A program made the translations under genes and the position numbers. 64,000 nt of DNA from an uncultured Alphaproteobacteria bacterium. GTDB lineage: Bacteria; Pseudomonadota; Alphaproteobacteria; ATCC43930; CGMCC-115725. Shown here piece by piece: positions 21,752 through 41,787 of the stretch. Each line of letters starts with the position of its first letter. The first letter of the stretch is position 1. The notes below the pieces were generated by a model, which was given only the letters and a program-made list of their open reading frames with translations, was not told the origin of the DNA and ran no database searches. Location: NCBI GenBank assembly GCA_963777435.1, contig CAVZQT010000004.1, positions 960,730 through 1,024,729 of the forward strand, written 5' to 3'.

Positions 21752-23251
21752 TTAACCATTCGCGATATTGGTTATGACGCCCATAGCGAACGGCGCGTAT
21801 ACCGCCAAGACTTCTTCAGCGTATACACCTACCTGGCGTTGGCGGGTGACGATCGGCCAGTCAATTTGATAATAATCTTGCCGCGTCTTCACCTCGGCTA
21901 CGTTGGGTACCTCGTTCGACTGATATTGGATTGGGAGATTTTCAGCCCAGCCAATGATAGTACCTGGAGGAACGCGAGGATGGATTTTGATTGGAATTCG
22001 AAGACCGCCGTAGATAGCAAAGGGGTTATAGTAGAATTGTACGACGCCTGATGCCGTCAGCTGATATTCACCATCGCTGCCATCGGCTGGAGTATCGTAC
22101 CGAAGTAACGGGCCCGACGCGTTAGAAAGCACCTTTGTTGTGATGTTCTTTAACTCCTGGGCATTTACATAAAGAACGGTCGGGGAGAGCTCGAAATTGT
22201 TCCACATCGTCTGGAACATGTTGTCGATCTCAACCACCGACCCACGACCAGATGCGGTAAGCGTGGTGCCTGTCCCCGCTGTGCCGGTACCCAGAGTATT
22301 CACGTAGGCGTTGGACCCCATTTTAAGCGCTGTTGTCAGCAACCCATCATACGCGTAGCTCGGGTTGGCGGAGAAATCGTTCGTGATCGCTGACTGTGCC
22401 TGGTTTCCCGTGGCAAGCGGCGCTGAAACCGCCAGACTGTTGACCGTGGTTATCGCCTGCAACGTTTCAGTGGCAGAAGATGTCGAGATGTACCAAGCAT
22501 AGGCCACGGCGCCTTGGATCGGAGTTACACTGCAAAGCAAAATCTGACCCAAGCTTACCAGTTGGCTGGCTTCGCCGCTGATATTTGAACATCCTCCGTT
22601 CAGAGTGAATGTTTTGCCGTCGACTCCGGTGACGGTTTTAGTCGTAGCCACTCCGCCGGATATGCTTGAATTTTGGTAACCTTCGAGCGTAAGGGCGGCT
22701 ACTCTGACATAGTATGTCGCAGCAGGCAGCGTTGCGCCGCCACCGGACGCCGCCAACGTTGGGGTTGCAGGCGTGCCGAGTTGCAACGATGCGTTGCCGG
22801 CCAGGATGGCCATCTCCTCTTTAAGCATCATCTTTTGCAGCAGCCGGAACGTCATCCGCGCTTGGATGTCTTCGAATTCGCGACCGGCAGAAATAGCTTC
22901 AAAGGTGGCCGCGTCTTCTTCGCCGATGGTGACGAAAGTGGCTGACTTGCTCGATGTCGAATACGACATTTGGCCGGAGCGCTGACCCTCTGGGACCCAT
23001 CCCATTGCGTCAAAGCCGGAGCCGATGATTGCGTTTACTTGACGCCAATTGGTGGCGGTTCCCGTGCCGCCACCGACGCGGGGCATTACGTTTCTGATCG
23101 GCGTGACAAAAGGGTAAAGGTTTTTGGCCGGTGCTTGCAAATCGTACGCTACTAGGCCAGTTGCTGTCGAAATTGACTTGCCAAGTGCGTCATCCGGCGC
23201 CGCTAGGGCCCGTTTCACTAGCTCCAGCAATTCCTGCGTTACAGAAGTCAT
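21752..23251 (-). CDS. major capsid protein (HK97 fold) with an inserted domain
   Basis: 499-aa ORF containing LQAPAKNLYPFVTPIRNV, FEDIQARMTFRLLQKMMLKEEMAILAGN and a central T/S-rich insertion. GGAGG precedes the ATG. Lies directly after the protease-scaffold gene. Confidence 0.82.
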   Translation of the reverse strand: MTSVTQELLELVKRALAAPDDALGKSISTATGLVAYDLQAPAKNLYPFVTPIRNVMPRVGGGTGTATNWRQVNAIIGSGFDAMGWVPEGQRSGQMSYSTSSKSATFVTIGEEDAATFEAISAGREFEDIQARMTFRLLQKMMLKEEMAILAGNASLQLGTPATPTLAASGGGATLPAATYYVRVAALTLEGYQNSSISGGVATTKTVTGVDGKTFTLNGGCSNISGEASQLVSLGQILLCSVTPIQGAVAYAWYISTSSATETLQAITTVNSLAVSAPLATGNQAQSAITNDFSANPSYAYDGLLTTALKMGSNAYVNTLGTGTAGTGTTLTASGRGSVVEIDNMFQTMWNNFELSPTVLYVNAQELKNITTKVLSNASGPLLRYDTPADGSDGEYQLTASGVVQFYYNPFAIYGGLRIPIKIHPRVPPGTIIGWAENLPIQYQSNEVPNVAEVKTRQDYYQIDWPIVTRQRQVGVYAEEVLAVYAPFAMGVITNIANG

Positions 23252-23330
23252 CTTAGTTCCTCCCGGCTGGGGGGCAAAAGAAAGCTCGGCAAGTTGCCGA
23301 GCTGGACTATCAAGTTGAAGGTTTAGGGGC

Positions 23331-25445
23331 TCACTGTCCGATCGCTTCTTGTCTCCGGGTGAGGCCGGGTGGATGAATGGGGCGGGCGTAGCTCGCCTTT
23401 ATCAATGTCAACGTCTGTTCTTCCTTGCTCATTTGAGAGAACGCTATCGCGAGTTCGTCGGTCGAAAATGCGTTGCTGCCGGTGTCCTGGTGTTTTGCAA
23501 TCGCGGCAACGCTCTTTGCTATCGTAACTGGAGCTAATGGAGTACGGGCAATATCCTCTACTCGTTTCGTCAACTGATCGAGACGGGGCATAATATCTGC
23601 GAGTGTCGTGATCAAAGCTGCCTTTTCAGCTTCCTCTCCTACGAACGTCTTACCCGAACTTCCTGACGACGCGGCCTTTGCTGGCTCGAAATCCGTCCTC
23701 TCCGACCCACCCTCGCCATCAGAGGTGACGTTGTCGCACACCGCTCCAGCCGCAGTCAGATGGTCATGAGCTCTCAGCAGATAACCCGATGTCTCCATAT
23801 CGTTGCGGCCACAAGCGTGCGTGGCGCGGTGGCAGCAGGCTCCATTGGTTAGTTTACAAACGCACTCGTGAGCTACGTCCAACAATGCCAAGTAACCAGT
23901 CGCTCCTTTACTCAGCGCCGCCGCGATCATATCGATCACCCCCGTGCTGGATGGAGCGTTTGCCGCACTGTTGAGTAAATCATTTTTCCCAGAACGGAGC
24001 GCTGGTGATGCCGCATCTGACTTCGAGGGATCAACCTTTGCCATGCGCGCAAGGTCGAACCCTGATTTTTCGCCAGCTAAGGCCCCCGCATCGTCGAGTG
24101 CTGAACGCGCCATGGCTATATGGCTTTTTTCCCCGTACCGCAATCCATGCATTCTCAGGCACTGAGAAACAGCCTGGTGCGCAAGGTCTAGAAGCGCTTG
24201 GTCTGCTTCAGTGTTCCTGGCTTTAATCAAGATTGCAGCCGCTAATTGCTGCAGATTTCGACTCCGTCCCTGCCACAAATCAGCAGCTAGGCGGGCTCCT
24301 TGAGTACCTGCGGCCATAATCATGGTATCGGCCGCTGTTCCAATCGGTGGTTCTCCCGTCAGGTCGGCCATGTCCAATATTTCACTGGCCTCCTCCGTCA
24401 CCAACGCGCCCAACAACCCGCACAGCTGGTTGATAATCCCTTGGAGCGCCGACGCTTCCGTGGAAGCGTCCCCCTCGATCTCCGCTTCGGCTGCAAGGCT
24501 CTCTTCAAGCCATGTTAATTCAAGTATGATGCGAACTACATAGCCAACATCCCATAGCGTCTTTGTCAGTGGCGGTTGTGCTCCCGTTTTCTGCTGGTTT
24601 AGCGATGGAGGCCCATCCTTATCGATTTTTTGCTTCCAGGCAGAAACGATACGAGCCTTGATCTGGTCAAGCTGATCCGGTGTGTACTGTCGCGCATTTC
24701 TGGGGCGGTTGATGAAATTCCAAGCGGCTCTGATGTGTCGCTCCGTGTCTATTGGGTATCGCTTTTGGCCATCTGACTGGTAGCCGGGATCGGCGTAATC
24801 ACCTTCGTTATAACCGGAATTGTTCTCAGCTTCGGTATTAGCTTTGTCCCGCTCACCTCCGGTAGCTGCACTGGAAATTCTCATTGTAGGACTCAGATCT
24901 TTATCTGACCTCTGCACTTGACACAGCACGGCGTGTGATGCGGCTAAGTGTCGGTGCCTGGGCACATCGCACGCCCAAGATTGCAATGATGAATTCAGTC
25001 TCACCTGCGGCTTCCTTGAAGCGCCAGCTGATTTCCAATAGTCGAACACCGCTTCCGGATTGGCCGGCCGATCGACCAGAGAAATCTCATTTAGGACGAG
25101 CCCGGTGATCGTCTTGTAATCGGTAGGATCTCGATGGGTTACATGACCGCCAATTGAATAACCCTTATAAACCCCCTCGACTACCTTCTGCCACGCGACC
25201 GGATCAACGATCTTAGCACCGATATAGAGCCCCTTGTCATCAACTGCGGCTTCCTTGGCAACTCCGACTGCGGATAGCTGATGCATTTCACGGATATTGG
25301 CAAATTTCATGTAGTCGCCAACGGCTGATATCAGCGCGTCGCGTTTTATAACTTCGCCCTGGTCGTCACGCGCCTCGGTGGATGCATAGCCCCACACCTC
25401 ATGTCTTTCCGCGTCGATTTTAGCTAGGGGGAAGTATATTTTCAT
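23331..25445 (-). CDS. prohead protease fused to a scaffold-like helical region
   Basis: The N-terminal ~135 aa match the HK97-type protease pattern (EVWGYASTE..., GYSIGGHV, LNEISLVDRPANPEA). This is followed by the YADPGYQSDGQKRYPIDTERHIRAAWNF motif and long helical Ala/Leu-rich sequence. Confidence 0.78.
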   Translation of the reverse strand: MKIYFPLAKIDAERHEVWGYASTEARDDQGEVIKRDALISAVGDYMKFANIREMHQLSAVGVAKEAAVDDKGLYIGAKIVDPVAWQKVVEGVYKGYSIGGHVTHRDPTDYKTITGLVLNEISLVDRPANPEAVFDYWKSAGASRKPQVRLNSSLQSWACDVPRHRHLAASHAVLCQVQRSDKDLSPTMRISSAATGGERDKANTEAENNSGYNEGDYADPGYQSDGQKRYPIDTERHIRAAWNFINRPRNARQYTPDQLDQIKARIVSAWKQKIDKDGPPSLNQQKTGAQPPLTKTLWDVGYVVRIILELTWLEESLAAEAEIEGDASTEASALQGIINQLCGLLGALVTEEASEILDMADLTGEPPIGTAADTMIMAAGTQGARLAADLWQGRSRNLQQLAAAILIKARNTEADQALLDLAHQAVSQCLRMHGLRYGEKSHIAMARSALDDAGALAGEKSGFDLARMAKVDPSKSDAASPALRSGKNDLLNSAANAPSSTGVIDMIAAALSKGATGYLALLDVAHECVCKLTNGACCHRATHACGRNDMETSGYLLRAHDHLTAAGAVCDNVTSDGEGGSERTDFEPAKAASSGSSGKTFVGEEAEKAALITTLADIMPRLDQLTKRVEDIARTPLAPVTIAKSVAAIAKHQDTGSNAFSTDELAIAFSQMSKEEQTLTLIKASYARPIHPPGLTRRQEAIGQ

Positions 25446-26035: not shown

Positions 26036-27223
26036 TTACCTCCACCTGGCGAGAATACGAATCTTGCCGGGAGACTTCAGGAGACGACCAAGAGCGAGCT
26101 GTACGATCGGAGTAATCCAGGACTCGACAGCTGCGAGGCTCGCGCCCACTGACGAGATCAATATCTCGCATGTAAAAGCATCGGCGGTAGTAATCTGGTA
26201 GCCTACCTCGACCGCGAGGAACGCATCGGCGACTGCGGCCGCCTCGCCCAGGGTTTCGATTTGCGGTGGGGTGTCCCGCACCGCTCGCGTGAGCGCTTCC
26301 GCACCAAGAATATTACTGCCGCGGAGCGCGCCGCTACTTTCGGCCGCGGCGTTTCGGTCCGCGGTTTGCTGCACCAGCAATTCGATTGCCGCGAACGCAT
26401 TGCTGGTGATCGGGCCACCCGCGGCCGTCACGGTGAATTCAACCGGCGCGCGCCCGTCAAACAGTACCGCCCCCGACCAGGCGATCGGCGCCGGCTGCGG
26501 GTCGATACGCTGCCCGGCAACAAATCCGAGGGCAACAAACTGATCGGCGCTGAGCGCGGCCGAGCCGAGGTTTTCAAGCGGCGCATTGGCGTCACGTAGC
26601 GCGCGGCTCAGCGCTTCGATTAGCGCCGAGGAACCGGCCCGTCGCCCGGCGAGCGCTTCCGCCGTGGCGTTGGCGTCGCCGCGTTGGGTCGCGTTGTCCT
26701 CGCCCGGGACCAGAGCATCGCGCTGTTTCCCGGCGAGGATTTCGAGCGGGGGGAACTCATCGCCGACAACGCTGTTGGCGCCGAGGTTCTCGAGCGGGTC
26801 GCCGCTGTCGGTAATTTGCGTCGCGGAAAACGCTACCGGATCAATCGCATCGCCGCGTGCATTACCGAGACCTTCGAGCGGCGCCATGATGTTATTTTGC
26901 AGGTTCGCGGCGCTCTCGGCCGGAGTCAAGCCATCGCTAATCCGGTGCGACAGCCATTCGGCCGATGTCCCGGCTTCGAGGATGGCGTTGCCAAGCGGTT
27001 CGATTGACGCCGAAACGTGGCGTTGCAGCCTCGCCAAGTACTCGGTTAGGGCCGCAGCATCGGCACGCGATTCCGCCAATGCGTCGGCGGCGAGCAAGCC
27101 ATTAGCAAGAAGCCCAACATTTATTGCGGCCGGCAGGTAGGCATCTGTGGTAACCGTGGTCCCGCTGACGAAGTAACGATCAGCGCGCGGCCCCCCTGGT
27201 CGATGCGCAATCCACACCGCCAT
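26036..27223 (-). CDS. repeat protein with a recurring (P)-L/I-E-x-L-G/A motif
   Basis: 395-aa ORF. About 13 occurrences of the short motif, e.g. IEPLGNA, APLEGLGNA, DPLENLGAN, PPLEILAGK, APLENLGSA, PQIETLGEA. Confidence 0.6.
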   Translation of the reverse strand: MAVWIAHRPGGPRADRYFVSGTTVTTDAYLPAAINVGLLANGLLAADALAESRADAAALTEYLARLQRHVSASIEPLGNAILEAGTSAEWLSHRISDGLTPAESAANLQNNIMAPLEGLGNARGDAIDPVAFSATQITDSGDPLENLGANSVVGDEFPPLEILAGKQRDALVPGEDNATQRGDANATAEALAGRRAGSSALIEALSRALRDANAPLENLGSAALSADQFVALGFVAGQRIDPQPAPIAWSGAVLFDGRAPVEFTVTAAGGPITSNAFAAIELLVQQTADRNAAAESSGALRGSNILGAEALTRAVRDTPPQIETLGEAAAVADAFLAVEVGYQITTADAFTCEILISSVGASLAAVESWITPIVQLALGRLLKSPGKIRILARWR

Positions 27224-27225
27224 GA

Positions 27226-27972
27226 TCAGAACCGCCCAACGCTTACCCGGCCGTTGGCGAGGTTGTTGTTGATCTTCCGCGCGCAGCTTGTGTAGGAGCT
27301 ACTGCTGCCGGCGCAGATGCTAAAAGCGGTACCGCTGACGCTCGACGGATTGGCCGTGGCGCCGAAGCTGTCCGTCATCTGAAAGCTCGTCGGCGATCCC
27401 CAACTCGGCGCCGCCCCATTGACCGAGATATTAGTGAATGTCAGCGTCCCGAAATTTGGCAGCGGGTTTGTCGTGTTTAAATCCTCGGTCATGATGTCGA
27501 ATTTCGATAGGCTGGTCTGCAGTGTGTCAGTCGGCGACCACGTCCATCCTTCCGTCACGTTCTGCACCTTCATGGCCCAAGTCTGTGAATTTCCAGCGGT
27601 GCAGTTTGCGGTGCAGGTCAGGGAAATCTTAACGATGTCTCCGCCAACCGTCGTGTGGCCGGGCGTCGTATCATTGACCGCTCCGGCCGGGTACATCTCG
27701 TAGAACGCGCCATAGGAAGGGGCACCCTGCGCGGTTATGGAGAAGGACATGCCGACCTGCGCAAGGTTGGTTCCGTCCTCGATGCCGACCCAGGCGATGA
27801 TGTTGTTGCCGGCTGAAGTCGTCGAGTTCGAAACCCAAGGCACGCGGATCGTTGCCCCGATCGATGTGTAAGTCGAGCCCGAGGCTTGGTAGCCGGCAAA
27901 GCCCGCGGTCGCGTGCGCAGCGTCGAGGCCCCCCAGCAAGCACGCCAGAGCGAGAACAAGACGCTTGAGCAT
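27226..27972 (-). CDS. secreted G1-family (eqolisin-like) glutamic peptidase homologue
   Basis: Signal peptide MLKRLVLALACLLGGLDAAHA. Motifs AWVGIEDGTNLAQVG, YGAFYEMYP and SKFDIMTEDL parallel the AWVGIDG..LQTG, AWYEWYP and FIIEDFE motifs of scytalidoglutamic peptidase, and the catalytic Gln and Glu positions are conserved. Confidence 0.6.
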   Translation of the reverse strand: MLKRLVLALACLLGGLDAAHATAGFAGYQASGSTYTSIGATIRVPWVSNSTTSAGNNIIAWVGIEDGTNLAQVGMSFSITAQGAPSYGAFYEMYPAGAVNDTTPGHTTVGGDIVKISLTCTANCTAGNSQTWAMKVQNVTEGWTWSPTDTLQTSLSKFDIMTEDLNTTNPLPNFGTLTFTNISVNGAAPSWGSPTSFQMTDSFGATANPSSVSGTAFSICAGSSSSYTSCARKINNNLANGRVSVGRF

Positions 27973-27974
27973 GC

Positions 27975-29264
27975 TTAGTTACCGACAACGATGCAGATGC
28001 CGTCGCCACCCGCCCCGCCAGCGCCAGCGGTTCCGGTCGCCGCGATGACCGCGCCACCACCACCGCCACCAGCGCCGTAGCCGCCTGTCCCGCCCGTGCC
28101 CGCCGTTGAGGCGGCTGTTCCAGTGTTGCCACCGCCAGCGCCAGCGCTGCCGTTGGCGCCCCCGATCGTCGGATTGGAGGGGCTGACGCCGTTGCCGCCG
28201 CTCGAGGTCGTTGAGCCGGTCGTGTTGGTGCCTCCGGTCGGGGCAGACAATTCGCTCGGCGCGATACCGCCGGCGCCAGCCATGCCGCTGGTGTTATTGC
28301 CGGCGCTGCCCCCGCTGGGGCCGCCATAGAGCCCCCCGTAAAGACCGGAGCCGCCGGCCGACGGGCCAGCGCGGCCAGTGAAATCATTGTTTGAAAGGTT
28401 GAGACCAGCCGTTGAGGCATTGACGCCATACGTCCACGTCGCTGCCGCGCCATTGAAATTGGACGCTGCGGCTCCGCCATAGCCGGTGACAAAGCCACCA
28501 AAGCTGGAGTTGCCTCCGGCCGTGCCCGCATTGTAACTAGCCGCCGTCGACACCGTGCCGCCAGCACCGCCTTGCCCCACCGTGACGGTGACGCTCGAAC
28601 CTAGCAGCGAGGCTGGGATCGTCGCGATTGCACCCGCGCCGCCGCCCCCACCACCCCCACTGAATCCCGAGGTCGATACCTCGCCGCTGGCCCCGCCACC
28701 GCCAGCACCCAGGCAGTAAGCCGTCACATAGCTGATGCCGGACGGCTTCGACCATGTATAGGTGCCGTGCCCAGTATAGACATTGGTAAAGCCGGTGGCC
28801 CCGCCGCTGCCGCACCCGAACTGACCGAGCGCCACATAATACGAGCCGCTCGGGCCACCGGACGCGATGACCTTGCCGATCGTCTGACCTGAGCTCGGGC
28901 AGGTTGAAGCGCCGGTATCATGCCCATAGCCGCCGGTCGTGCTCGAAATCTGCACGAAATCGCCGGCCGTCCCGCTGCCATCGAGGAGCAATGCCGCCGT
29001 TCCGTTGGTGGCAATCTGTGCGCTGCCCGATGTCCCGCAGCCGCCTACGCATACGCCGCGAACCCCGTTGCTGTCGGCAGTCGCCGCAATGACTGCGTTG
29101 CCACTGCTGTTGATCTTGGTCAGGGTGTAGAGTGTCGTTCCAGTCGTGCCGGCATTGGTCCGGTCTTCAAGCAGCCCGTTCTGCGTCGACAGATCCAGAC
29201 CTTGCGCCCAGGCTGGCAATGCCGCGACCGAGGTCAGCAGCCCAAGGATAAACGATCTCTTCAC
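27975..29264 (-). CDS. secreted glycine-rich domain protein (fibre-type YTW..P.G / GGGGG module)
   Basis: GTG start at 29264 with AAGGAG 6 nt upstream. Signal peptide VKRSFILGLLTSVAALPAWA. Contains YTWSKPSGISYVTAYCLGAGGGGASG...VTVTVGQGGAGG and a long Gly-rich C-terminus. The track ORF starts at 29483. Confidence 0.7.
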   Translation of the reverse strand: MKRSFILGLLTSVAALPAWAQGLDLSTQNGLLEDRTNAGTTGTTLYTLTKINSSGNAVIAATADSNGVRGVCVGGCGTSGSAQIATNGTAALLLDGSGTAGDFVQISSTTGGYGHDTGASTCPSSGQTIGKVIASGGPSGSYYVALGQFGCGSGGATGFTNVYTGHGTYTWSKPSGISYVTAYCLGAGGGGASGEVSTSGFSGGGGGGGAGAIATIPASLLGSSVTVTVGQGGAGGTVSTAASYNAGTAGGNSSFGGFVTGYGGAAASNFNGAAATWTYGVNASTAGLNLSNNDFTGRAGPSAGGSGLYGGLYGGPSGGSAGNNTSGMAGAGGIAPSELSAPTGGTNTTGSTTSSGGNGVSPSNPTIGGANGSAGAGGGNTGTAASTAGTGGTGGYGAGGGGGGAVIAATGTAGAGGAGGDGICIVVGN

Positions 29265-29281
29265 GGTAGCTCCTTTGCACA

Positions 29282-30018
29282 TCATTGGTGCGCAATCGCT
29301 ATTGAGACAACGGACCCGATCGCCGAGGTGAATAAGTAAGTATTCGAAAATGTTCCGGAGGCCGGGATTGGTCCATTGCTGTCGAAGATATAAGGGAACG
29401 AATAAGCTACGCCGTGAACGACGCTTGTCAGGGCGCTGTTCGTCCAGCTTATCGAGCCCCCACCGAAACCACCGATCACCCATGTATTGAGACTATTTGT
29501 TGTGACGTCGCCGGCCAGGCTGTTGGCGGATGTGGCCCCTGTCGTATGGGTTGTTGCGGCGCTGTCCAGGCCGAAAGTCTTGACCCCACTGTAATCCGCC
29601 GCGACGGCCAAGAGGTACGTGTCAGAGCCAGTGTTATTCTGGCTGACGACGAGTTGTACGTCCCGATTGATGGACTGAAGAGATAGTAGAGGTATTGGCA
29701 GCGAAGGCCGCCGGTGGCTGCACCAATCAACTTCCCAGCCTGTATCATCGCCGCGCCGTTGAAGGTCACCCCGGTAACGTTATCCGCGGACGATCCGTAG
29801 GCGCCGGAGATCGATACGACCAGCAGGTTCGACAGGGGCTTGGTCGTGTAGCTCCTTGTCATGGCGCCGGACGCACCGCCATTATTCCCCAGATCGGCTG
29901 ACCCTTGGCGGACAATACCGGTGCGTTGGTCCCCCACAATGCCCATGAGCTGAGCCGTCGCCAGCCTCGGGAGAAGCAGCGGCGCTGGCATGGCGAGCAG
30001 TAGGCGGCGCCTGAGCAT
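29282..30018 (-). pseudogene. secreted protein gene, frameshifted
   Basis: N-terminal frame 29476..30018 (MLRRRLLLAMPAPLLLPRLATAQ..., protein-like up to ..CQYLYYLFSPS). The C-terminal part lies in another frame (..INRDVQLVVSQNNTGSDTYLLAVAADYSGVKTF..., track ORF 29282..29611). Confidence 0.6.
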
Positions 30019-30776
30019 CAGTTGTACCCGTAGGAACAGGTCAACGCGGTTCCTGGAGCGATCGACCCGGTCGCAGTGGTTGTCGCCGCGTAGCTTATTG
30101 CTGTGCCGAATTGCTCGCCCGGAAACGGCATTGTGAAGCCGCCATTAAGGGTCGCCGGCACGGGGACAACATCGACCGGCGTCGAGGATCCGAGCGTGAC
30201 CGAGCCCGAGGCGATATTGAAAATCTGCACGTAGGCCACGGTCGCGTTCGGGTTGTAGCAGAGCATCTTGCCGAGCTGTCCGGCGCTCGATTTGATTGAG
30301 GTAACAGTGGTCGAGACCGCCGCGGTGATGCCGGGCGTCCATCCGCCTGAGGTTGTGAGCGCTCCCGTTACGGCGCCGATCGTGTTTGAGCCAGCCGGAA
30401 GCGCCGCATTGACCTGAACGCCGTTGGTGCTTCCGGGCGTCGTCTGATCGATCCCGACCTTGCCGATAATGGCGGACCCCGCCGTTAAGGAACCGAGCGC
30501 ATTGGCCCCCGCAGGCAGTGGCGAGTTCGGCGACAGGCTGACGACGGCGGCCGGATCAGTCGCCACAGCTGCGGTCGAGGCTGCTTTGACCGCCCCACAA
30601 TTGGCCAATGCCGAGCCGTCGCACACCGCAATCTTAGAGCCAAGATTGCCGCTGCCATCGGTCACGGCGTCGAAATTCGTGCCGGACCCAACCGTGACAG
30701 CATATGTGGTGCTGCCAGCCCAAGCCTGGGTCGCCGTGAGCGCCAGCAATGCGCCGGCGAGGAATTGCTTGATCAT
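30018..30776 (-). CDS. secreted T/S/G/A-rich protein
   Basis: Start at ATG 30776 (ATGA overlap with the upstream stop). Signal peptide MIKQFLAGALLALTATQAWA. The track ORF starts at 30842. Confidence 0.65.
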   Translation of the reverse strand: MIKQFLAGALLALTATQAWAGSTTYAVTVGSGTNFDAVTDGSGNLGSKIAVCDGSALANCGAVKAASTAAVATDPAAVVSLSPNSPLPAGANALGSLTAGSAIIGKVGIDQTTPGSTNGVQVNAALPAGSNTIGAVTGALTTSGGWTPGITAAVSTTVTSIKSSAGQLGKMLCYNPNATVAYVQIFNIASGSVTLGSSTPVDVVPVPATLNGGFTMPFPGEQFGTAISYAATTTATGSIAPGTALTCSYGYN

Positions 30777-31069
30777 TGGAGCACCGTTGGAACAGAGACC
30801 GAGCTGCACGCGGTATTGACCGCCAGGTTCAGCACGCCGCACAGTGTCGGGCCACCGTCGGAATCACCGCCGACGACCTGGACATAACTGCCGTTTGGCA
30901 GGTAGACGAAGCTGCCGTTCGGCAAGTAGACAAAGGTGGACGGCGCGGTAGCCGTCGAATTGCTGCCGGCGCCGAGGATCAAGAAAGCCCGCGCCACACC
31001 CGCCAGAGTGATGGTAGCGACCAGGACTGCGAACCCACACTCGGCGGCGCGTCTAATCAACCGCTTCAT
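30773..31069 (-). CDS. small secreted protein with an FVYLPNGS duplication
   Basis: Start at ATG 31069 (TGATG overlap). Signal peptide MKRLIRRAAECGFAVLVATITLAGVARA. 98 aa. Confidence 0.55.
   Translation of the reverse strand: MKRLIRRAAECGFAVLVATITLAGVARAFLILGAGSNSTATAPSTFVYLPNGSFVYLPNGSYVQVVGGDSDGGPTLCGVLNLAVNTACSSVSVPTVLQ
30887..30934. repeat. 24-bp tandem duplication (2 copies)
   Basis: ACTGCCGTTTGGCAGGTAGACGAA / GCTGCCGTTCGGCAAGTAGACAAA, 20/24 identical. It encodes the duplicated FVYLPNGS in the 98-aa secreted protein. Confidence 0.85.
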
Positions 31070-32091
31070 CAGCTGGGCTTCAAAAAGACCGTGATGCCGC
31101 CGATCGCGGCCCCGGTGCCCCAACCAGATCCCGCGGTCTGCAGACAGATCGAGGTGCCATTGGAGATGGTCGGAGTCCCGGAGGTGATGGTTTGGTTATT
31201 GGTGGCTGAGCCATTGGCGTTGAACGACGTCGAGATCGCGGTTCCGGCCGAGCAAAGCGTGCCGGACGCGGCCGAATTGACTGTGATCGTCGCCGTCGCA
31301 CCCTCGGCGACCTCGACCCGCCCGACGATCGCCTGCACGGTGTAGGCGCCGCCGCTCAGATTGGTGAAGACCGTGGCATTGTTCGGGTTCTGGCCGGCGA
31401 CCCAGCCGATCGCTACTGGGATCAGGGTCGGCAGGTCGGCATTGACGATCGCTCGCGGCGTCATCGCCCCCGACGATCCATTGGGCGCCGCGAGGAAAAG
31501 GTTGGCCGTCTGACTCGCACCCGTCACCGTGAGAGTGCCGCCGGTCCCCGTCAACGGAGATCCCGAGACCGAGAAATAGGACGGCATCGATAGCGCGACC
31601 GATGTAATTCCGGCCGACGGCAAAAATCCGACGTAATTGGTGCCGTCCGGGTCCGCGATGCTGAAGCAGGTATTGGCCGGGATCACCAGCGACGACGAAC
31701 CGTTGACCGTGCTTGGGCTGGTGACGGTTAAGGTGTCGGGCTGAGCTGTCGTACAGATATCGACCGAGAACCCCGCGCCAAAGCCGGTGGTCGATACGTT
31801 CGGCAAGGTGTCGGCGGTGGTGCCCGAATAAGTGCGTTTGACAACCTTGGTGTTGTCACTCGCGGCAATGGTGTAGCCGGAGCCGCCCTGAGTGTTGGCC
31901 AGTAATGTGGTCCCGACCGTGCAGCCGGTCGGCGCTGCGCAGGATGCTCCGCCATTCAGCAGGACATTGGGGGTCGCGGCCGTCAGGCTGGTAATGCCGC
32001 GGATGATGCTTTGCGCGTCGCCTCGACCGATAAACCCGATCCCCGCGATCAGCGCCGCGGCACCAGTTACCGCCCATAGGACCTTACGCAT
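31069..32091 (-). CDS. secreted fibre-like protein
   Basis: Signal peptide MRKVLWAVTGAAALIAGIGFIGRGDA. The internal segment SVSGSPLTGTGGTLTVTGASQTANLFLAAPNGSSGAMTPRAIVNADLP resembles a repeat common in phage tail-fibre proteins. Confidence 0.65.
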   Translation of the reverse strand: MRKVLWAVTGAAALIAGIGFIGRGDAQSIIRGITSLTAATPNVLLNGGASCAAPTGCTVGTTLLANTQGGSGYTIAASDNTKVVKRTYSGTTADTLPNVSTTGFGAGFSVDICTTAQPDTLTVTSPSTVNGSSSLVIPANTCFSIADPDGTNYVGFLPSAGITSVALSMPSYFSVSGSPLTGTGGTLTVTGASQTANLFLAAPNGSSGAMTPRAIVNADLPTLIPVAIGWVAGQNPNNATVFTNLSGGAYTVQAIVGRVEVAEGATATITVNSAASGTLCSAGTAISTSFNANGSATNNQTITSGTPTISNGTSICLQTAGSGWGTGAAIGGITVFLKPS

Positions 32092-32605
32092 AAGCTTCGG
32101 TCACGTAGGTGGCACTCTGATTGCCACTCGAATAGGCGGCGAGCGCGGCACCGCAATTGTTGTAGAGCAGCACCGCGCAATAGGTTGGGACATTGCCGAT
32201 CAGCCCGCGGATCGATTGCCAGCGCGTCTGGTAAAGGGTAACACCCGATTGCATTGTCAGGGTGTCGATCAGTGCCAGAGCCGCGGCCGCCGGATCAAAT
32301 GCGAGCCAGCCGGAAAGGGCCGTCGATTGATCCGAGGTCGAATTCGGGTCAATTCCGCCCGGCCATATCGAGCTGTCCTCGCTAAATAGAAGATAGCGGG
32401 AGATCGTGTTGCCGGCCGTAACGGTGCCAGTCGCAATTTTCCACGGCGGCAGGATGATGTCGCCAAAGGGTTGACTGATTGTTCCGGGGCTGATGACCCC
32501 AAGTCCTTTCGCCTGCCCATTGGCCAGGCTGCTCAGGTTGTCCGGCGACTGGTTCGGGCCCTTTGGCCACGTCGCTGCCGTCGCCCGCGACCACGGGTTG
32601 CTCAT
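32084..32605 (-). CDS. hypothetical protein
   Basis: 173-aa ORF with no signal peptide. Overlaps the next gene by 8 nt. Confidence 0.55.
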   Translation of the reverse strand: MSNPWSRATAATWPKGPNQSPDNLSSLANGQAKGLGVISPGTISQPFGDIILPPWKIATGTVTAGNTISRYLLFSEDSSIWPGGIDPNSTSDQSTALSGWLAFDPAAAALALIDTLTMQSGVTLYQTRWQSIRGLIGNVPTYCAVLLYNNCGAALAAYSSGNQSATYVTEAYA

Positions 32606-32973: not shown

Positions 32974-34074
32974 TTAGATGGTCGTGCCCTGAGTCCGTAT
33001 ATCCGCAGAGCCCTTGTAGGCGGCGGTTCCGGCTGGCAAGGAGAGGCGTAACCAAACGCCTTGCGCACCCGCGGCGTTATTGCCGGGGGGAAGGTTCCCG
33101 GCCCCAGGCACATTTATGAAGGCCGGTTGAGCGATGAATGAGCTGAGGCCAGTCGGCAAGAACCCCGATGATTGCTGACGCGGATTGGCCGCGTTGGTGT
33201 CATTCAGCGATGTACAGAGGCCGATATCGAGTAACGCAACAGAAGGGAGCGTCGGCGCCTCAAGGGCAACTTCGATCTGCGCTCCGGTCAAAGCTGTAGA
33301 GGCGTTCGTGTTGACCACAAACACCTTTTCGTAGAAATAGCGAGCCGATCCACCCGGTACATCCGCTGCTAAGGTCCAAAAACAGCGCGTAATCGCGGTT
33401 ACCGGATTCGGGCTGATCTCGAACAGCATACCTTGGAGGATGTCGTAGCTCGTGGCGTTCGTTGGGATGGTTACCCAATCACGGTTTACAGCGACGACGT
33501 CGGTTCCATAACCGGATGTCGCAACAATCATGCGCAACTGGTATTGCACGCCAGCCGGGGTGTTGTTCAAAATCCGAATGATCATCCCGGGCGACACACT
33601 AGCGCCGTCGCCCGATTGCAATTTGAACAGCGGCGGCGTGGTGCCGGATGTGTTGGCGGCGCCGGTTTGCGCCGTATGGCCGGCAATGACCTGTGTGCTC
33701 GCATAGAGAGCTACATCGCCAACTGCCGGCGTTCCGGTCGGATTACTCAACACGGCGATCGATCCGCCCGTAATGACCGCCGCACCGATGCGCTCAAAGA
33801 TCTGGGAGGAACCGATGCTGGCTACCGGAGTCGTTCCCGTGAGGGTGATGGCTGGGGGCGTTTGGATGACACCCGACGCGTCTCGGCCAGCGACCTGAAG
33901 CTTGGTTGCGATGTCGGAGGACGAACTCGACACTGCCGACAATTGCCCATTTGGGCTGATGTCGTAAAAGGCGACGCGCTTAGTGAAATCGACCGCGCCG
34001 CCGACCATCGCGCCATCGGCTTCCGGCATATTCGCCGAGCCGTATACGACAATATTGTTCGGAGTGACACTCAT
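32974..34074 (-). CDS. hypothetical protein (366 aa)
   Basis: GAGGAG precedes the ATG. T/S/A/G-rich and beta-type, with no signal peptide. First gene after the AT-rich gap downstream of the portal. Confidence 0.6.
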   Translation of the reverse strand: MSVTPNNIVVYGSANMPEADGAMVGGAVDFTKRVAFYDISPNGQLSAVSSSSSDIATKLQVAGRDASGVIQTPPAITLTGTTPVASIGSSQIFERIGAAVITGGSIAVLSNPTGTPAVGDVALYASTQVIAGHTAQTGAANTSGTTPPLFKLQSGDGASVSPGMIIRILNNTPAGVQYQLRMIVATSGYGTDVVAVNRDWVTIPTNATSYDILQGMLFEISPNPVTAITRCFWTLAADVPGGSARYFYEKVFVVNTNASTALTGAQIEVALEAPTLPSVALLDIGLCTSLNDTNAANPRQQSSGFLPTGLSSFIAQPAFINVPGAGNLPPGNNAAGAQGVWLRLSLPAGTAAYKGSADIRTQGTTI

Positions 34075-34362: not shown

Positions 34363-35707
34363 CTAATGTAATTGCTGATTGTCTCCGCCAACTGGAGGGA
34401 GTCCAAAAATCTCCCGGGCTTCATTCAAGGTATAGATTCCATCTTTTACGTAAATGTCGAGTATTGCCGCTTGATCCTTCGGGTTCGCAGGCTGCACGTC
34501 GGTCCACACAAACTCTAGGTCCGAGTGCCCCATCCGGTCCTGAATGACACCGTCTACTAAGCGTTTGACCCAGCCAGTAAGCGGCGCGAGTCCCTCTTCA
34601 ACTGCAGTCTCTTGGGCAGATTGCGCTGTCGCGCGATTCACTTGCGCGGTAAAGGCAGTGGGTGGTAGTGAAAAAGCATAGCAGACGATGCGCGCCAGCC
34701 ATTCGTCGAACTCATCCTTGTATGGCGCTTCTTTGAAAGCCTGGTATTTGGCCCCGGTCGGCGCCCAGATGAGGCGCGTCCGATTGGCGGAATTACCGGC
34801 CAGAATCGAGTTCGAACCACTCCTGGAACTGCCTAATCTGTTCGGCACTCCAGCCGTCCGGAGCATTAACCAAGCCAGGGGGGACGTTTCCGTCCGTGAA
34901 GTGCTGCAACTGCATTACTTGCCGCCGCAGGCCGATATTGATCGTCATGATTATTTGTTCGCAGGGGCCAAAGCCATACGCCCTATGAGGCCGCCGATTC
35001 CGAGGCATATAAATCAGTTCGTCGGACGTAAGCAGCTTCCAAGGCCGCCCGTGAATGATCTGCTCGTAACCTGGCGCAGGCGGTCGGGGACGACGTCCCG
35101 TGTCGTCAATTAGCACCTTGATAGTCGATCCGTCGACGACATCAAGCCCGATCACGTCTCCGGCGCGGTTACGGCGCACCTCTAAACAGGGGGCATCCAG
35201 TACCAAAAGGTCCTCGAGCAATTCGCGCAGCCAACTAGCGAAGGGCTGGTCGCCATCAGGCTTTCGCCAGAAATCAGTCAATCCGGATATGCGCTCCGGT
35301 GCGTCGTTTATTGGCTTCGCCGCCTTCCGAGCCCGAATTCTCCACTCGAGCTTTTCGATTTGATCCTTTCGCGTTTCAATAGCCAGCCGTGTAATATCGT
35401 GATTTTCGGCCAACCCGCGAAGATCTTGAAACCCGATTGGCTCGTAGGCGCGTGGTGTATAAATTGTATTGTAGCCGACCGGAAAATCCCAAACTCGAAC
35501 GCGTTCGCGTTCGGGTGGGACCAGCGGGTAACCGGGTGAGAATATTCCCTGGTCGGGTTGAAATATTTGTCGATACGCGGTGATGTCGTTTTGCGAACCC
35601 ACCCCGCCCCAGCTATATGAAGCGAGCGAAGTGCGCTTTCCTCCAGGAAAGCTCATAATAAAACTACCCGACAACTCGATGCAATAAGTTTGCCACAGCA
35701 TCACCAT
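34363..35707 (-). pseudogene. portal protein, split by a +1 frameshift
   Basis: The N-part 34793..35707 ends ..PDGWSAEQIRQFQEWFELDSGR*. The C-part is in the +1 frame (..ILAGNSANRTRLIWAPTGAKYQAFKEAPYKDEFDEWLARIVCYAFSLPP...). Together they give a portal-like ~430 aa. The likely true start is MSFPGGKR at 35656. Confidence 0.75.
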
Positions 35708-38229: not shown

Positions 38230-39643
38230 GAGCTATCGCCGAATTTTGGTGATGGTCCAAGGGTTCAGGCGGCGGCGGTTCGGGATTGCGAGGACGTCGG
38301 GTTGGCGGCGACTTCGATCCCGTCAGTGAACCTGACACCTTGAATGAGCTTGGGCAACTGGTTGTGGCCATCGAGCCTGCGCCAGCTTTTCTGCGCCGCA
38401 TCGACGAGCTTGAATACCATGGCGAGCGCCGTCCTATTCGACAGGCAGCCCTTCGAGCGGATCGTGCGGTGCCGTACGGTGGCAAAGGTGCTCTCGATCG
38501 GGTTCGAGGTCCGCAGATGTTTCCAGTGTTCGGCAGGGAAATCGTAGAATGCGAGCAGGGCCTGGCGATCCTTTGCCAGGCACTCGGCGGCCTTATCGTA
38601 TTTGAGCTGGTAGGCTGCGATGAAGGCGTCGAACGCGGCCTCGGCGTCCTTGCTCGTCTCCGCCATCCAGATCTCCTGTAAGGCCCGCTTGGCTTTGGGC
38701 TGCTGGCTTTTCGGCAGTTTGTTGAGGACGTTGGCGGTCTTGTGCACCCAGCAGCGTTGCTCGCGTGTGGCCGGCCACAGCTCGCCGAGCGCCTTCCAGA
38801 AGCCAAGCGCGCCGTCGGCGACGGCGAGTTCGGGCGTGACGACCAGGCCTCGGTTCTGCAAATCGATCAGCAGCTCCCGCCAATCCTGCGCGCTTTCGCG
38901 CGCGCCGTCAGTGAAGCCGAGCAGCTCCTTCCTGCCCTCCGGCGTCGCGCCGATGATCACCAGGATGCATTGCTTGGCGTCTTCGAGGCGGGCCTGCAGG
39001 TAAATGCCGTCGGCCCACACGTAGACGTAGCGCTTGGCCGACAGATCGCGCTTCTTCCAGTGCTCGTGCTCGTCGATCCAGACCTCCTTCAGCCGGGCAA
39101 TGGTCGAGGCCGACAGGCCCGGCGCATCCTTGCCGAGCAGGGCCGCAAGCGCCTCCTCGAAATCGCCGGTCGAGATGCCTTTCAGGTAAAGGATCGGGAT
39201 CAGCACCTCCAGGCTGCGGGAGCGCCGTGCATAGGGCGGCAGGATCGCGGGGGTGAAGCGGATGCGCCCGGCGTCATCGGCAGCGCCACGGTCGCGCACG
39301 CGCGGTTGGCGCACGCCGACCGGGCCAATGCCGGTCATCACCTCGCGTTCAGGCAGATGCCCGTGCCGGACCATGCGGTTCAGGCCAGTAGCGGTCTTCA
39401 GATCGACATGCTTGGCCAGGAATTCGGCCACCTCGGCCTCGATCGCTTGGGCCAGTAGGGCGCGCGCTCCGTTGCGCAGCACCTCGGTGAGCGGGTCGGC
39501 GAATGACCCTGGTTGAAGCAGCTTGACGACGTTAGCATCGGACACGGCGTATCACTCCTTTGCGGGAGAAGTGGAGGCGCGAACACCCCCACGATACGCC
39601 GCCTTCATCCCGTCAGCCCGTCACCAACTTCCGCCCATAGCTC
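38230..39643 (-). mobile_element. IS256-family insertion sequence (1414 bp)
   Basis: Imperfect terminal inverted repeats (GAGCTATCGCCGAATTTTGGTGATGGTC vs GAGCTATGGGCGGAAGTTGGTGACGGGC, 21/28 identical). Identical 9-bp direct repeats CAGCCCCGT at 38221-38229 and 39644-39652. One transposase ORF. Confidence 0.92.
38265..39545 (-). CDS. IS256/Mutator-family transposase
   Basis: 426-aa ORF with the family pattern (YVWADGIYLQARLED, LVIIGATPEGRKELLG, ESAQDWRELLIDLQNRGL, QRCWVHKTANVLNKLP). Confidence 0.92.
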   Translation of the reverse strand: MSDANVVKLLQPGSFADPLTEVLRNGARALLAQAIEAEVAEFLAKHVDLKTATGLNRMVRHGHLPEREVMTGIGPVGVRQPRVRDRGAADDAGRIRFTPAILPPYARRSRSLEVLIPILYLKGISTGDFEEALAALLGKDAPGLSASTIARLKEVWIDEHEHWKKRDLSAKRYVYVWADGIYLQARLEDAKQCILVIIGATPEGRKELLGFTDGARESAQDWRELLIDLQNRGLVVTPELAVADGALGFWKALGELWPATREQRCWVHKTANVLNKLPKSQQPKAKRALQEIWMAETSKDAEAAFDAFIAAYQLKYDKAAECLAKDRQALLAFYDFPAEHWKHLRTSNPIESTFATVRHRTIRSKGCLSNRTALAMVFKLVDAAQKSWRRLDGHNQLPKLIQGVRFTDGIEVAANPTSSQSRTAAA

Positions 39644-40416: not shown

Positions 40417-41787
40417 TCAGCCGCAGAGATTTGAACGGTTAACGTTTGACTCTTGATCACTGAGCTGCCGATAGGCGTCGTAAATCCCTTGTCCTGACAT
40501 CGGCGTCACGAGTAACTCAGTTAATGCCCAGACCAATGCGTCGACTCGATCGGGCGAATATCGTGCGCCAGTGCCCCCGACGCTGGACTCGGTTCTCCGA
40601 GTAAGCGTGCACATCTGATCTTCGAGCTTAGGAAACGCGCCAAGATGATGCACTTTGCCCTGCTCGTATAGGGCTGCAATCGGTTCGGCACGCGTGACCT
40701 TGCCTCGCGAAGCACGAACGCTTGTAAAAGGCACATTCGGATCGATCATCCGAATGGTGGTCTCTACCATCTCGCCGCCGTTGTTTACTTCGGCGACGAT
40801 CCGGTCGGCGTGATGCGTGTGGTACGCCGCGATTGCAGCATTGGCCCACTCAATTGGCCGATATCGGCCTGATAGATCTGACAATACCCAGCCGTGACCT
40901 ACGCTGTCCCGGCCCGCGACGATAATGCCGGTTTCATCTGCCATTTCTCCACAAGTAGCTGCGGGATCAATCGCAACCACAATTCTGGACAAAGGTGGGG
41001 CGCTGCGAACTCGAGCAGCCTCAATGAGGCCGCGACTCCATAACCCGCCGGGCAGCTCGTCCAGGATTTCAGCCTCAATTTCTTGCCGACCGAGTCGGGT
41101 GCCCTCGTATTTGCGCACTATCTGATCGAGAAAATCAGGCGCGAGATTCGCCCGGTTTTGATAAGTGGTGCCGCGCGTCACCGCGACCGCAGGGTCTTTG
41201 AGTAACGCTCGCAGCAATGGCGTTGGCCGCGGCGTCGTCGTGACAACGACCCGTGGATCGTCACCCAAACGCAAACCAAACATCAGCATGTCCCGTGCTT
41301 CTGGATAACGCCAACTGGTGAGTTCGTCGCACCAAGCTGTATCATGCTGCGGCCCACGCAGACGCTCAGGCTCATCCGCGCTGTAAAAAGTCGCAGTTGC
41401 CCCATTATGCCAAGTCAGCCGTCGCCGGGAAGGTTCATAACGTGGTCGATCCCAGTGCGGCGAGATTGCTAGAATCCCGCTCTCGCCCTCCACCATTATA
41501 TCCCGCGCATCGGCCGCAGTAGGGGCGACCAGGGCTAGGCGGCGGGCCCGTCTTTCAGCAACACTCGATCGCACGAGTTCGGCTCCAGCTCGAGTCTTGC
41601 CGAATCCCCGACCAGCAAGCAATAACCAAACCCGCCAGGGTCCGCTCGGGGGAAGCTGATTTGGGCGAGCCCAGAACCGCCAATCGTGCAGCAGTGCGAG
41701 GGCCTCCCGTGGGCTCAGCGCGTCAAGGACGCCATCCCGAAGCTTATCTGGAAGCGAGGCAAGCCCACTTGCTTGCAAGCACCTCAA
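40417..41787 (-). CDS. terminase large subunit (GTA g2-like)
   Basis: LHDWRFWARPNQLPPSGPWRVWLLLAGRGFGKTRAGAELV (Walker A-like) and 456 aa in length. Apparently intact. Confidence 0.88.
   Translation of the reverse strand: MRCLQASGLASLPDKLRDGVLDALSPREALALLHDWRFWARPNQLPPSGPWRVWLLLAGRGFGKTRAGAELVRSSVAERRARRLALVAPTAADARDIMVEGESGILAISPHWDRPRYEPSRRRLTWHNGATATFYSADEPERLRGPQHDTAWCDELTSWRYPEARDMLMFGLRLGDDPRVVVTTTPRPTPLLRALLKDPAVAVTRGTTYQNRANLAPDFLDQIVRKYEGTRLGRQEIEAEILDELPGGLWSRGLIEAARVRSAPPLSRIVVAIDPAATCGEMADETGIIVAGRDSVGHGWVLSDLSGRYRPIEWANAAIAAYHTHHADRIVAEVNNGGEMVETTIRMIDPNVPFTSVRASRGKVTRAEPIAALYEQGKVHHLGAFPKLEDQMCTLTRRTESSVGGTGARYSPDRVDALVWALTELLVTPMSGQGIYDAYRQLSDQESNVNRSNLCG

Follow-up and report, generated by a model that had tools for sequence, protein, structure and literature searches.

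The gene at 27226..27972 on the minus strand of a 64,000-nucleotide stretch from an uncultured alphaproteobacterium (assembly GCA_963777435.1, contig CAVZQT010000004.1, positions 960,730 to 1,024,729; the whole stretch is referred to as the window) encodes a 248-amino-acid homologue of the G1 (eqolisin) glutamic peptidases. Its membership in this family, with the beta-sandwich fold and the Gln/Glu dyad retained, is solid. The family assignment as such is routine annotation and is already made automatically by public pipelines; the novelty lies in a short form that has no propeptide and that recurs alongside phage fibre-like genes for exported proteins, here in a genus-wide phage-derived element. 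The best explanation of the locus, held as a whole at somewhat less than an even chance, is that it encodes a Sec-exported and catalytically competent enzyme of a short (about 250 amino acids), propeptide-less, two-disulfide subfamily, and that the gene shares a transcript with, and is translationally coupled to, those of exported fibre-like proteins.

The open reading frame (ORF) is intact and fills 27226-27972 exactly, and the plus-strand reading of this interval is riddled with stop codons. The protein matched the Pfam profile PF01828 (Peptidase_A4, the equivalent of the MEROPS G1 or eqolisin family) with an E value of 9.2e-20 and 71.4 bits against a gathering cut-off of 22.3 bits. The match covered residues 25-190, corresponding to profile positions 3-173 of 206, and a PF01828 scan of the whole genome recovered the same locus (E 1.4e-19). 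Detection of known structures required a profile because the single-sequence phmmer search of the PDB failed, returning no G1 structure and just a chance match to an S-layer protein (E 0.25). A profile of 20 homologues found aspergilloglutamic peptidase (1Y43_B, E 2.6e-21) and scytalidoglutamic peptidase (SGP; 1S2B, E 7.3e-17), and hhalign of the subfamily alignment against SGP gave a probability of 97.4. No NCBIfam or PHROGs model matched the protein. A preliminary description of this DNA had proposed the G1 homology, with no mention of the minus strand, and these profile matches bear it out. The dN/dS ratio of the gene was 0.10-0.14 at a dS of 1.1-2.0, and the gene is under strong purifying selection (dN/dS about 0.1).

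The AlphaFold2 (AF2) model of the protein was all-beta, with a mean predicted local distance difference test score (pLDDT) of 81.8 and a core above 90; residues 1-21 and 231-248 were modelled at a pLDDT below 50. When the model was compared with the PDB using Foldseek, the best three matches were all SGP structures (2IFR, 2IFW and 1S2B; E 3.4e-12 to 3e-10; template modelling (TM) score 0.73-0.74), in agreement with the beta-sandwich expected in the preliminary description. YncM, CPAVM1 and neprosin came next, and generic lectin/glucanase sandwiches ranked after these; lectins and the CBA120 tailspike TSP2 were among the lower matches. Gln72 (codon CAG, 27757..27759, minus strand) was aligned with the catalytic Gln53 of SGP, and Glu163 (codon GAG, 27484..27486, minus strand) with the catalytic Glu136, by both hmmsearch and hhalign. 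These are the Gln of LAQVG and the Glu of MTEDL that had been picked out as catalytic, and the proposed correspondence of YGAFYEMYP to YDAWYEWYP was also real in the profile alignments. Both residues were invariant in alignment A1 and at least 90% conserved in alignment A2, and both lie on high-confidence strands of the model (E70-79 and E157-164) in blocks with a pLDDT of 86-96.

The SGP residues G8, G41, G44, G55 and P72 are conserved, and Q53 and E136 are catalytic (PMC6154417). Four of the structural residues had unambiguous counterparts in the window protein by hhalign (G8=G27, G41=G63, G55=G74 and P72=P95). The counterpart of G44 (G67) varied with gap placement, and W67 was replaced by F90. 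After the WVGI motif the window protein continues with E65-D66-G67, and 3 residues of the SGP loop that leads to the catalytic Gln are missing, so that either E65 or D66 may take the role of D43. The D43A mutant of SGP keeps about 20% of its activity (PMC6154417).

Signal peptides were called heuristically throughout, from charge, Kyte-Doolittle hydrophobicity and cleavage motif. A Sec-type signal peptide was predicted for residues 1-21 (27910..27972, minus strand), with the cut at AHA/TAG. The N-terminus reads MLKRLVLALACLLGGLDAAHA before the predicted cut and TAG after it, and it has K3/R4, a 12-residue hydrophobic core with a mean Kyte-Doolittle value of 2.69, the highest of the region, and an A-H-A cleavage motif. 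The segment is also kept among close and distant homologues (alignments A1 and A2), and the signal peptide noted in the preliminary description is supported. A lipoprotein reading was rejected: Cys11 lies too near the start of the protein, no lipobox surrounds it, and homologues have Trp or Gly instead. The mature protein is acidic, with a computed isoelectric point of 4.1-4.9. Two pairs of cysteines are conserved in A2, namely C120/C124 in CTANCT and C220/C230 in FSxCWG...YTxC. The second pair belongs to a C-terminal tail of about residues 220-248 (27226..27315, minus strand), which ends in GRF.

The fungal G1 enzymes are made as prepro-proteins (PMC6154417). In the window protein the predicted cut follows A21 and the Pfam G1 domain begins at residue 25 (profile position 3), 3 residues past the cut, so the prosegment of G1 prepro-enzymes is missing and there is no room for one. 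Actinobacterial-type homologues and the chromosomal paralogues of the same genus have 35-50 extra residues at this position. Since the chromosomal paralogues keep about 35 amino acids after the signal peptide, the absence of this usual zymogen device from the short form is a loss, and it fits a restricted specificity.

G1 peptidases had been called rare in bacteria, a premise that fails here. Genes matching PF01828 were present in 19 of 37 genomes of the same genus, and in none of 24 genomes outside it. Scanning 1.84 billion representative proteins with the single sequence (HMMER) gave 378 clusters (50% identity) at E values up to 1e-3, and NCBI already lists a homologue with 70% identity under the name 'G1 family glutamic endopeptidase [Stellaceae bacterium]'. 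In the phylogeny, a two-disulfide clade that includes paralogues from the same genus received a Shimodaira-Hasegawa-like approximate likelihood ratio test (SH-aLRT) value of 97. The window clade was placed within a short-form sub-clade (SH-aLRT 86), sister to longer multi-domain forms that again include genus paralogues. Relatives from phage contexts with 33-42% identity match the window protein in length, signal peptide, cysteines and dyad in A2, the alignment of the two-disulfide subfamily, which is about 30% identical overall. The chromosomal G1 paralogues (L010-L016) consist of a signal peptide, a conserved segment of about 35 amino acids with the motif HRPMxPYxNxDGTFRRLRG, a two-disulfide G1 domain, a Pro-rich linker and an immunoglobulin (Ig)-like C-terminal domain. 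A second chromosomal class (L008, L009) has no signal peptide.

The G1 gene starts 2 nucleotides past the stop codon of the upstream gene (TAA-GC-ATG), and the downstream gene starts 2 nucleotides past the G1 stop codon (TGA-TC-ATG). These gaps on both sides argue for co-translation of the G1 gene with its neighbours. The upstream partner is a glycine-rich protein of 430 amino acids with a predicted signal peptide (27975..29267, minus strand). It matched PF21722 (Gly_rich_2) with an E value of 2.3e-9 and 38 bits against a cut-off of 24.3 bits, and it also matched phrog_863. A profile of six homologues of this partner matched the 'tail wing brush' gp33 of mycobacteriophage Bxb1 (PDB 9D93) with an E value of 6.2e-7, at strong compositional bias. 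The AF2 model of the partner was poor (mean pLDDT 51), with a glycine-rich core of 70-90 as its sole usable part; the best Foldseek match was 9d93_Q (E 4.7e-8, target-normalised TM score 0.53), followed by the fibre of cyanophage Pam3 (E 1.4e-4).

Six consecutive genes, from a 340-amino-acid gene through the G1 gene, have signal-peptide-like N-termini, and Gly, Thr and Ser together make up a fraction of 0.27-0.51 of their residues. No such N-termini were found in the head genes flanking this cassette. The run of translationally linked, secreted Gly/Thr/Ser-rich neighbours that had been described earlier was thus recovered. The GC content at third codon positions (GC3) was 0.67-0.79 in the cassette, which is host-like (G1 gene 0.76), versus 0.55-0.60 in the head genes. 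Promoter-like and terminator-like sites in the 21-36 kb region of the window did not rise above chance.

Relatives of the G1 gene were found in several phage-like neighbourhoods. The short-form gene P0022 lies between genes for the large terminase subunit (TerL) and an SU10-type portal. On a 62-kb contig P0025 comes 2 nucleotides after a Gly_rich_2 gene, and an IMG/VR scan with P0025 found an 85% relative on one viral contig; the IMG/VR scan with the window G1 protein gave no match. P0026 lies upstream of a gene for a ClpP-type protease and an HK97 capsid gene and adjoins a PEP-CTERM protein, and P0021 and P0028 are both downstream of glycine-rich ORFs. P0032 and P0046 have glycosyltransferase and PEP-CTERM genes around them, and none of their called neighbours is a phage gene. 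Because of these two cellular PEP-CTERM-type neighbourhoods a 'phage-specific clade' was rejected as too strong; with both phage and cellular contexts in the tree, the subfamily is recurrently but not exclusively phage-borne. It was seen in at least three unrelated phage backbones beside fibre-type proteins with signal peptides. No close G1 relative was found in PHROGs, in 50,697 GenBank phage records searched by tblastn or among the viral structures of BFVD, and a literature search found no paper on phage G1 peptidases.

In seven of eight independent contexts the G1 gene overlaps the upstream gene or sits at most 2 nucleotides from it, and in these seven the upstream genes whose N-terminus is on the contig bear a signal-peptide-like segment. 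The upstream gene was Gly_rich_2 or glycine-rich in four lineages. PEP-CTERM (exosortase-sorted) neighbours accompany short-form G1 genes outside phages and one in a phage-like contig (L033:1222-1956 (-) and the contexts of P0032 and P0046), which suggests a wider link of the G1 subfamily to secreted matrix or surface proteins.

The gene downstream of the G1 gene encodes an acidic repeat protein of 395 amino acids that has no signal peptide (26036..27223, minus strand). The closing gene of every cassette type (26036-27223 (-), L019:14306-15781 and L020:14479-15690) encodes a protein that varies in its N-terminal half, whereas the C-terminal half is conserved, contains repeated P-[IL]-E-x-L motifs and ends in ...LLA..GR.RLL.R. 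This layout is the reverse of that usual for receptor-binding proteins. The rest of the clade-specific variable cassette (29282..32605, minus strand) consists of a gene for a protein of 173 amino acids, genes for proteins of 340, about 94 and about 252 amino acids that are predicted to be exported, and a frameshifted gene; these genes are absent from L019-L023. The cassette slot lies between a conserved core gene for a 366-amino-acid protein with no signal peptide and no family match (32974..34074, minus strand) and a conserved gene for a 125-amino-acid protein, and its content is species-dependent. In five other species the slot holds 3-6 kb of unrelated genes, again including signal-peptide proteins, and in one of these species an Rv2525c-like glycoside hydrolase. 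The G1-bearing cassette is common, in full synteny, to the nearest species (G018 = L005) and to the contigs L001 and L002 from metagenome-assembled genomes (MAGs), in which the G1 protein is identical to that of the window. A 340-amino-acid cassette protein of L020 was considered as a glycoside hydrolase family 16 glucanase on account of an ExDxxE-like motif and was dismissed, as there was no Pfam support.

The exported 340-amino-acid protein of the window (31069-32091 (-)) has a C-terminal domain of about 200 amino acids in common with two proteins on unrelated phage contigs. One of these (L026:4257-6452) is a tail-fibre-like protein of 731 amino acids and has no signal peptide, and the other (L025:5974-8004) has 676 amino acids and a signal peptide. 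The shared pattern is ...TLPNVS..GFGAGF...ITV.LKPS; none of the three proteins had a Pfam or PHROG match, and the window version had no PDB match. The gene at 29282-30018 (-) is frameshifted, with the N-terminal domain of a 403-amino-acid L020 protein aligning in two frames. The corresponding slot of L001 is occupied by a different gene, which encodes 250 amino acids with a signal peptide.

The cassette is part of a phage-derived element that has an aminotransferase gene on one side and clpB on the other and extends over about 10-43.7 kb of the window. The order on the minus strand is TerL, tailspike-like gene, portal, 366-amino-acid gene, cassette, 125-amino-acid gene, S78 protease/scaffold, major capsid protein (MCP) and tail module, and a complete head-tail structural module (TerL, portal, S78 protease, MCP and tail genes) was found. 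TerL (40417-41787, minus strand) was recognized by Pfam and PHROG matches. The portal gene (34363..35707, minus strand) is split by a frameshift into ORFs of 304 and 167 amino acids (34793-35707 and 34363-34866), which match PF04860 at positions 6-183 and 187-320; it is one intact ORF of 465 amino acids in the sister species L020, and in L001, L002 and L005 gene calling likewise divided it into shorter genes. The frameshifts in the portal gene and in 29282-30018 could be real decay or long-read indel errors in MAG-type assemblies. The prohead protease/scaffold fusion (23331-25445; Peptidase_S78, DUF6582 and a PHROG head-protease match) and the MCP gene (21752-23251; phrog_13692) together occupy 21752..25445 on the minus strand. 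The tail module resembles that of the Rhodobacter capsulatus gene transfer agent (RcGTA), with Phage-tail_3, Rcc01698_C and NlpC/P60 matches; despite this RcGTA-type tail, the capsid protein of 499 amino acids has no Pfam match and differs from that of RcGTA. An IS256/Mutator-family transposase (38265-39545, minus strand; PF00872, E 1e-64) is located in the N-terminal part of the 990-amino-acid tailspike-like ORF, the homology of which to its relatives starts only at residue 193 or so.

The MCP gene was detected in 33 of the 41 genus genomes, and at least nine species carry the element in one and the same orientation at a distance of about 18-23 kb from clpB. The identity of ClpB was 88-90% where that of MCP was 88-91%, and in distant species the values were 81% and 83-84%. 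The shared clpB locus and the co-divergence of MCP and ClpB are a signature of vertical inheritance. The dN/dS ratio of the MCP gene was 0.038 at a dS of about 1, and ratios of 0.106, 0.095 and 0.081 were obtained across the element for the G1, portal and tailspike-like genes, the first resembling the other two; dS was similar for all element genes (0.6-1.4). The dN/dS values of two L001 genes were discarded since indels had broken the codon alignment. The element appears to be of phage origin, passed on vertically and maintained by selection (similar to a gene transfer agent (GTA) or the like), and not a recently acquired prophage. The earlier placement of the gene in a prophage operon was therefore right as to the string of phage late genes, and 'prophage' is better replaced by a genus-wide, vertically inherited element beside clpB.

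The activity, cellular location and substrate of the G1 protein are proposals drawn from these genes. After export and signal-peptide cleavage the enzyme would fold in the periplasm, where its two disulfides would form, and Gln72 and Glu163 would activate water as in SGP. It may then act as a narrow-specificity processing or maturation peptidase on the co-exported partners of the cassette, and with no prosegment its restraint would come from a narrow specificity or from pH rather than from a zymogen stage. Such partner-linked processing or maturation of co-exported fibre-like proteins is the likeliest role, although it is proposed tentatively. Of the roles put forward in the preliminary description, a processing enzyme or a lysogenic-conversion exoenzyme, the recurrent coupling to an upstream exported partner would favour one linked to the partner. 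It is favoured because the gene overlaps or closely follows an upstream gene in seven of the eight contexts, with a signal-peptide-like N-terminus wherever the start of that gene is on the contig, because the short form has lost the prosegment that shields cells from broad proteases, and because the cellular cousins also adjoin secreted PEP-CTERM proteins. Several points weigh against this role. The characterised G1 enzymes all work at pH 2-5 (PMC3009609), and the periplasm of a neutrophile would be unfavourable for this requirement. The loop after WVGI is short in comparison with SGP, which makes the counterpart of D43 ambiguous (E65 or D66). The partners resemble virion fibre parts, which are normally cytoplasmic, and their signal peptides are unexplained. 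The family of the upstream partner also varies (a 676-amino-acid protein in L025 and others in L031 and L032), and a strictly dedicated protease-substrate pair is for this reason not established.

Several other explanations have to be weighed against processing of the partners. The protein might instead degrade envelope or surface proteins as an accessory function, supplying the catalysis in a module of 'enzyme plus brush' type comparable to the Bxb1 tail wing, and would then cleave such host proteins for particle release, for adsorption or for receptor destruction in superinfection exclusion. This is considered unlikely, although the glycine-rich partner is related to Bxb1 gp33 and the Pam3 fibre, and the Bxb1 brush is mounted on an enzymatic wing protein (PMC12646305). 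The hypervariability of the cassette slot between species, similar to that of host-interaction loci, the Rv2525c-like glycoside hydrolase in the slot of another species and the constancy of the enzyme while its partner family changes also speak for a degrading enzyme. However, the signal peptides would take the proteins out of the cytoplasm, where virions are assembled, no receptor-destroying G1 peptidase is known, and an unregulated, propeptide-less protease in the periplasm would endanger its producer unless gated by pH or specificity.

Still less probable is a generic 'moron' exoprotease, that is, a captured host-type, secreted acid protease for nutrient scavenging which is expressed independently in lysogenic conversion and has no link to its neighbours. 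The host-like GC3 of the cassette, distinct from that of the head genes, would be expected of such a gene; G1 peptidases are common chromosomal exoenzymes of the genus, and some short-form relatives occur in cellular contexts. Independent expression is hard to reconcile with promoter and terminator signals that do not exceed chance and with the 2-nucleotide gaps, which argue for co-translation. The same multi-gene module was moreover found again in unrelated phage backbones, and the missing propeptide and Ig-like tail are atypical of a bulk exoprotease. A non-catalytic lectin or adaptor with the G1 (concanavalin-like) fold, which would serve as a binding or assembly partner of the fibre-like proteins with the dyad as a relic, is given a similarly low probability. 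The G1 fold belongs among the concanavalin A-like lectin/glucanase sandwiches, the weaker Foldseek matches included lectins and CBA120 TSP2, and the gene is directly downstream of a fibre-type gene, the usual place of phage adhesins and assembly factors. The shortened D43 loop, the change of W67 to Phe and the lack of a propeptide also speak for it, but at least 90% of the members of this otherwise so divergent subfamily retain Gln and Glu, and G8, G41, G55 and P72 are retained as well.

A propeptide-less, disulfide-braced short form in a presumably non-acidophilic Gram-negative bacterium would test whether eqolisins can act where conditions are not strongly acidic, and what controls them when there is no zymogen. 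The recurrence beside fibre-type proteins with signal peptides suggests that exported phage accessory modules make up a class not yet studied; were the gene an ordinary captured exoprotease, the finding would be routine annotation. More speculatively, and improbably on the present evidence, the G1 peptidase and the brush could be the two parts of an exported accessory device passed between phages and phage-derived, GTA-like elements, in which the brush would target the cell surface and the peptidase would cleave a surface or partner protein at near-neutral pH. If true, this would be the first viral G1 glutamic peptidase, and the partners would be the first Sec-routed fibre-type proteins of phages, acting from the periplasm or the cell surface, possible examples being the masking or destruction of receptors and the arming of particles after lysis.

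The type enzymes of MEROPS G1, SGP (SCP-B; 1S2B, 2IFW and 2IFR) and aspergilloglutamic peptidase (1Y43), are secreted and share family, fold and dyad with the window protein, although the latter is only about 24% identical to them. Unlike SGP, it has no prosegment, a D43 loop shorter by 3 residues and Phe in place of W67; its two disulfides (CTANCT and C220-C230) are different, and it has an extra C-terminal tail of about 30 amino acids. The count of D+E residues is 11 in the window protein and 32 in SGP, and the window gene is bacterial and has a phage-linked context. The only characterised bacterial G1 peptidase is pepG1 from the acidophile Alicyclobacillus sp., with a pH optimum of 3-4 (PMC3009609). 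Both are bacterial, secreted G1 proteins, a likeness drawn from the description of pepG1 only, but pepG1 is a free-standing chromosomal exoenzyme, whereas the window gene is in a phage-derived cassette.

Bxb1 gp33 is a glycine-rich bundle of polyproline II helices, like the S16 gp38 adhesin (PMC13243192), and is mounted via the gp31 arm on gp30, a D-Ala-D-Ala carboxypeptidase tail protein (PMC12646305). The Bxb1 tail wing and the window cassette both pair a glycine-rich brush with a peptidase, that of Bxb1 being a non-essential phage accessory module (PMC12646305, PMC13243192). The two peptidase families are unrelated (G1 and carboxypeptidase), and the window proteins carry predicted Sec signal peptides and belong to a Gram-negative alphaproteobacterial host. 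YncM (4HFS) and CPAVM1 (8XAI) of Bacillus subtilis and neprosin (G3; 7ZVA) have a related beta-sandwich of the glutamic-peptidase type (Foldseek E 3e-7 to 1e-4). Their structural match is far weaker and they belong to different families, while the window protein scores with PF01828 itself. The pre-neck appendage protein gp12 of phage phi29 (MEROPS G2) is a case from a tailed phage in which glutamic-type peptidase activity is tied to the maturation of a fibre or appendage; its G2 domain is intramolecular and self-cleaving and has an unrelated fold, and is not a free exported G1 enzyme. Among the cellular counterparts are the chromosomal paralogues of the genus (L010-L016 and P0023-like), which belong to the same two-disulfide clade and share the signal peptide and the CT(A)xC and FSTCWG...TPC motifs. 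With 380-430 amino acids, the segment of about 35 amino acids, the Pro-rich linker and the Ig-like C-terminal domain, they fall in the sister sub-clade of the short form described here.

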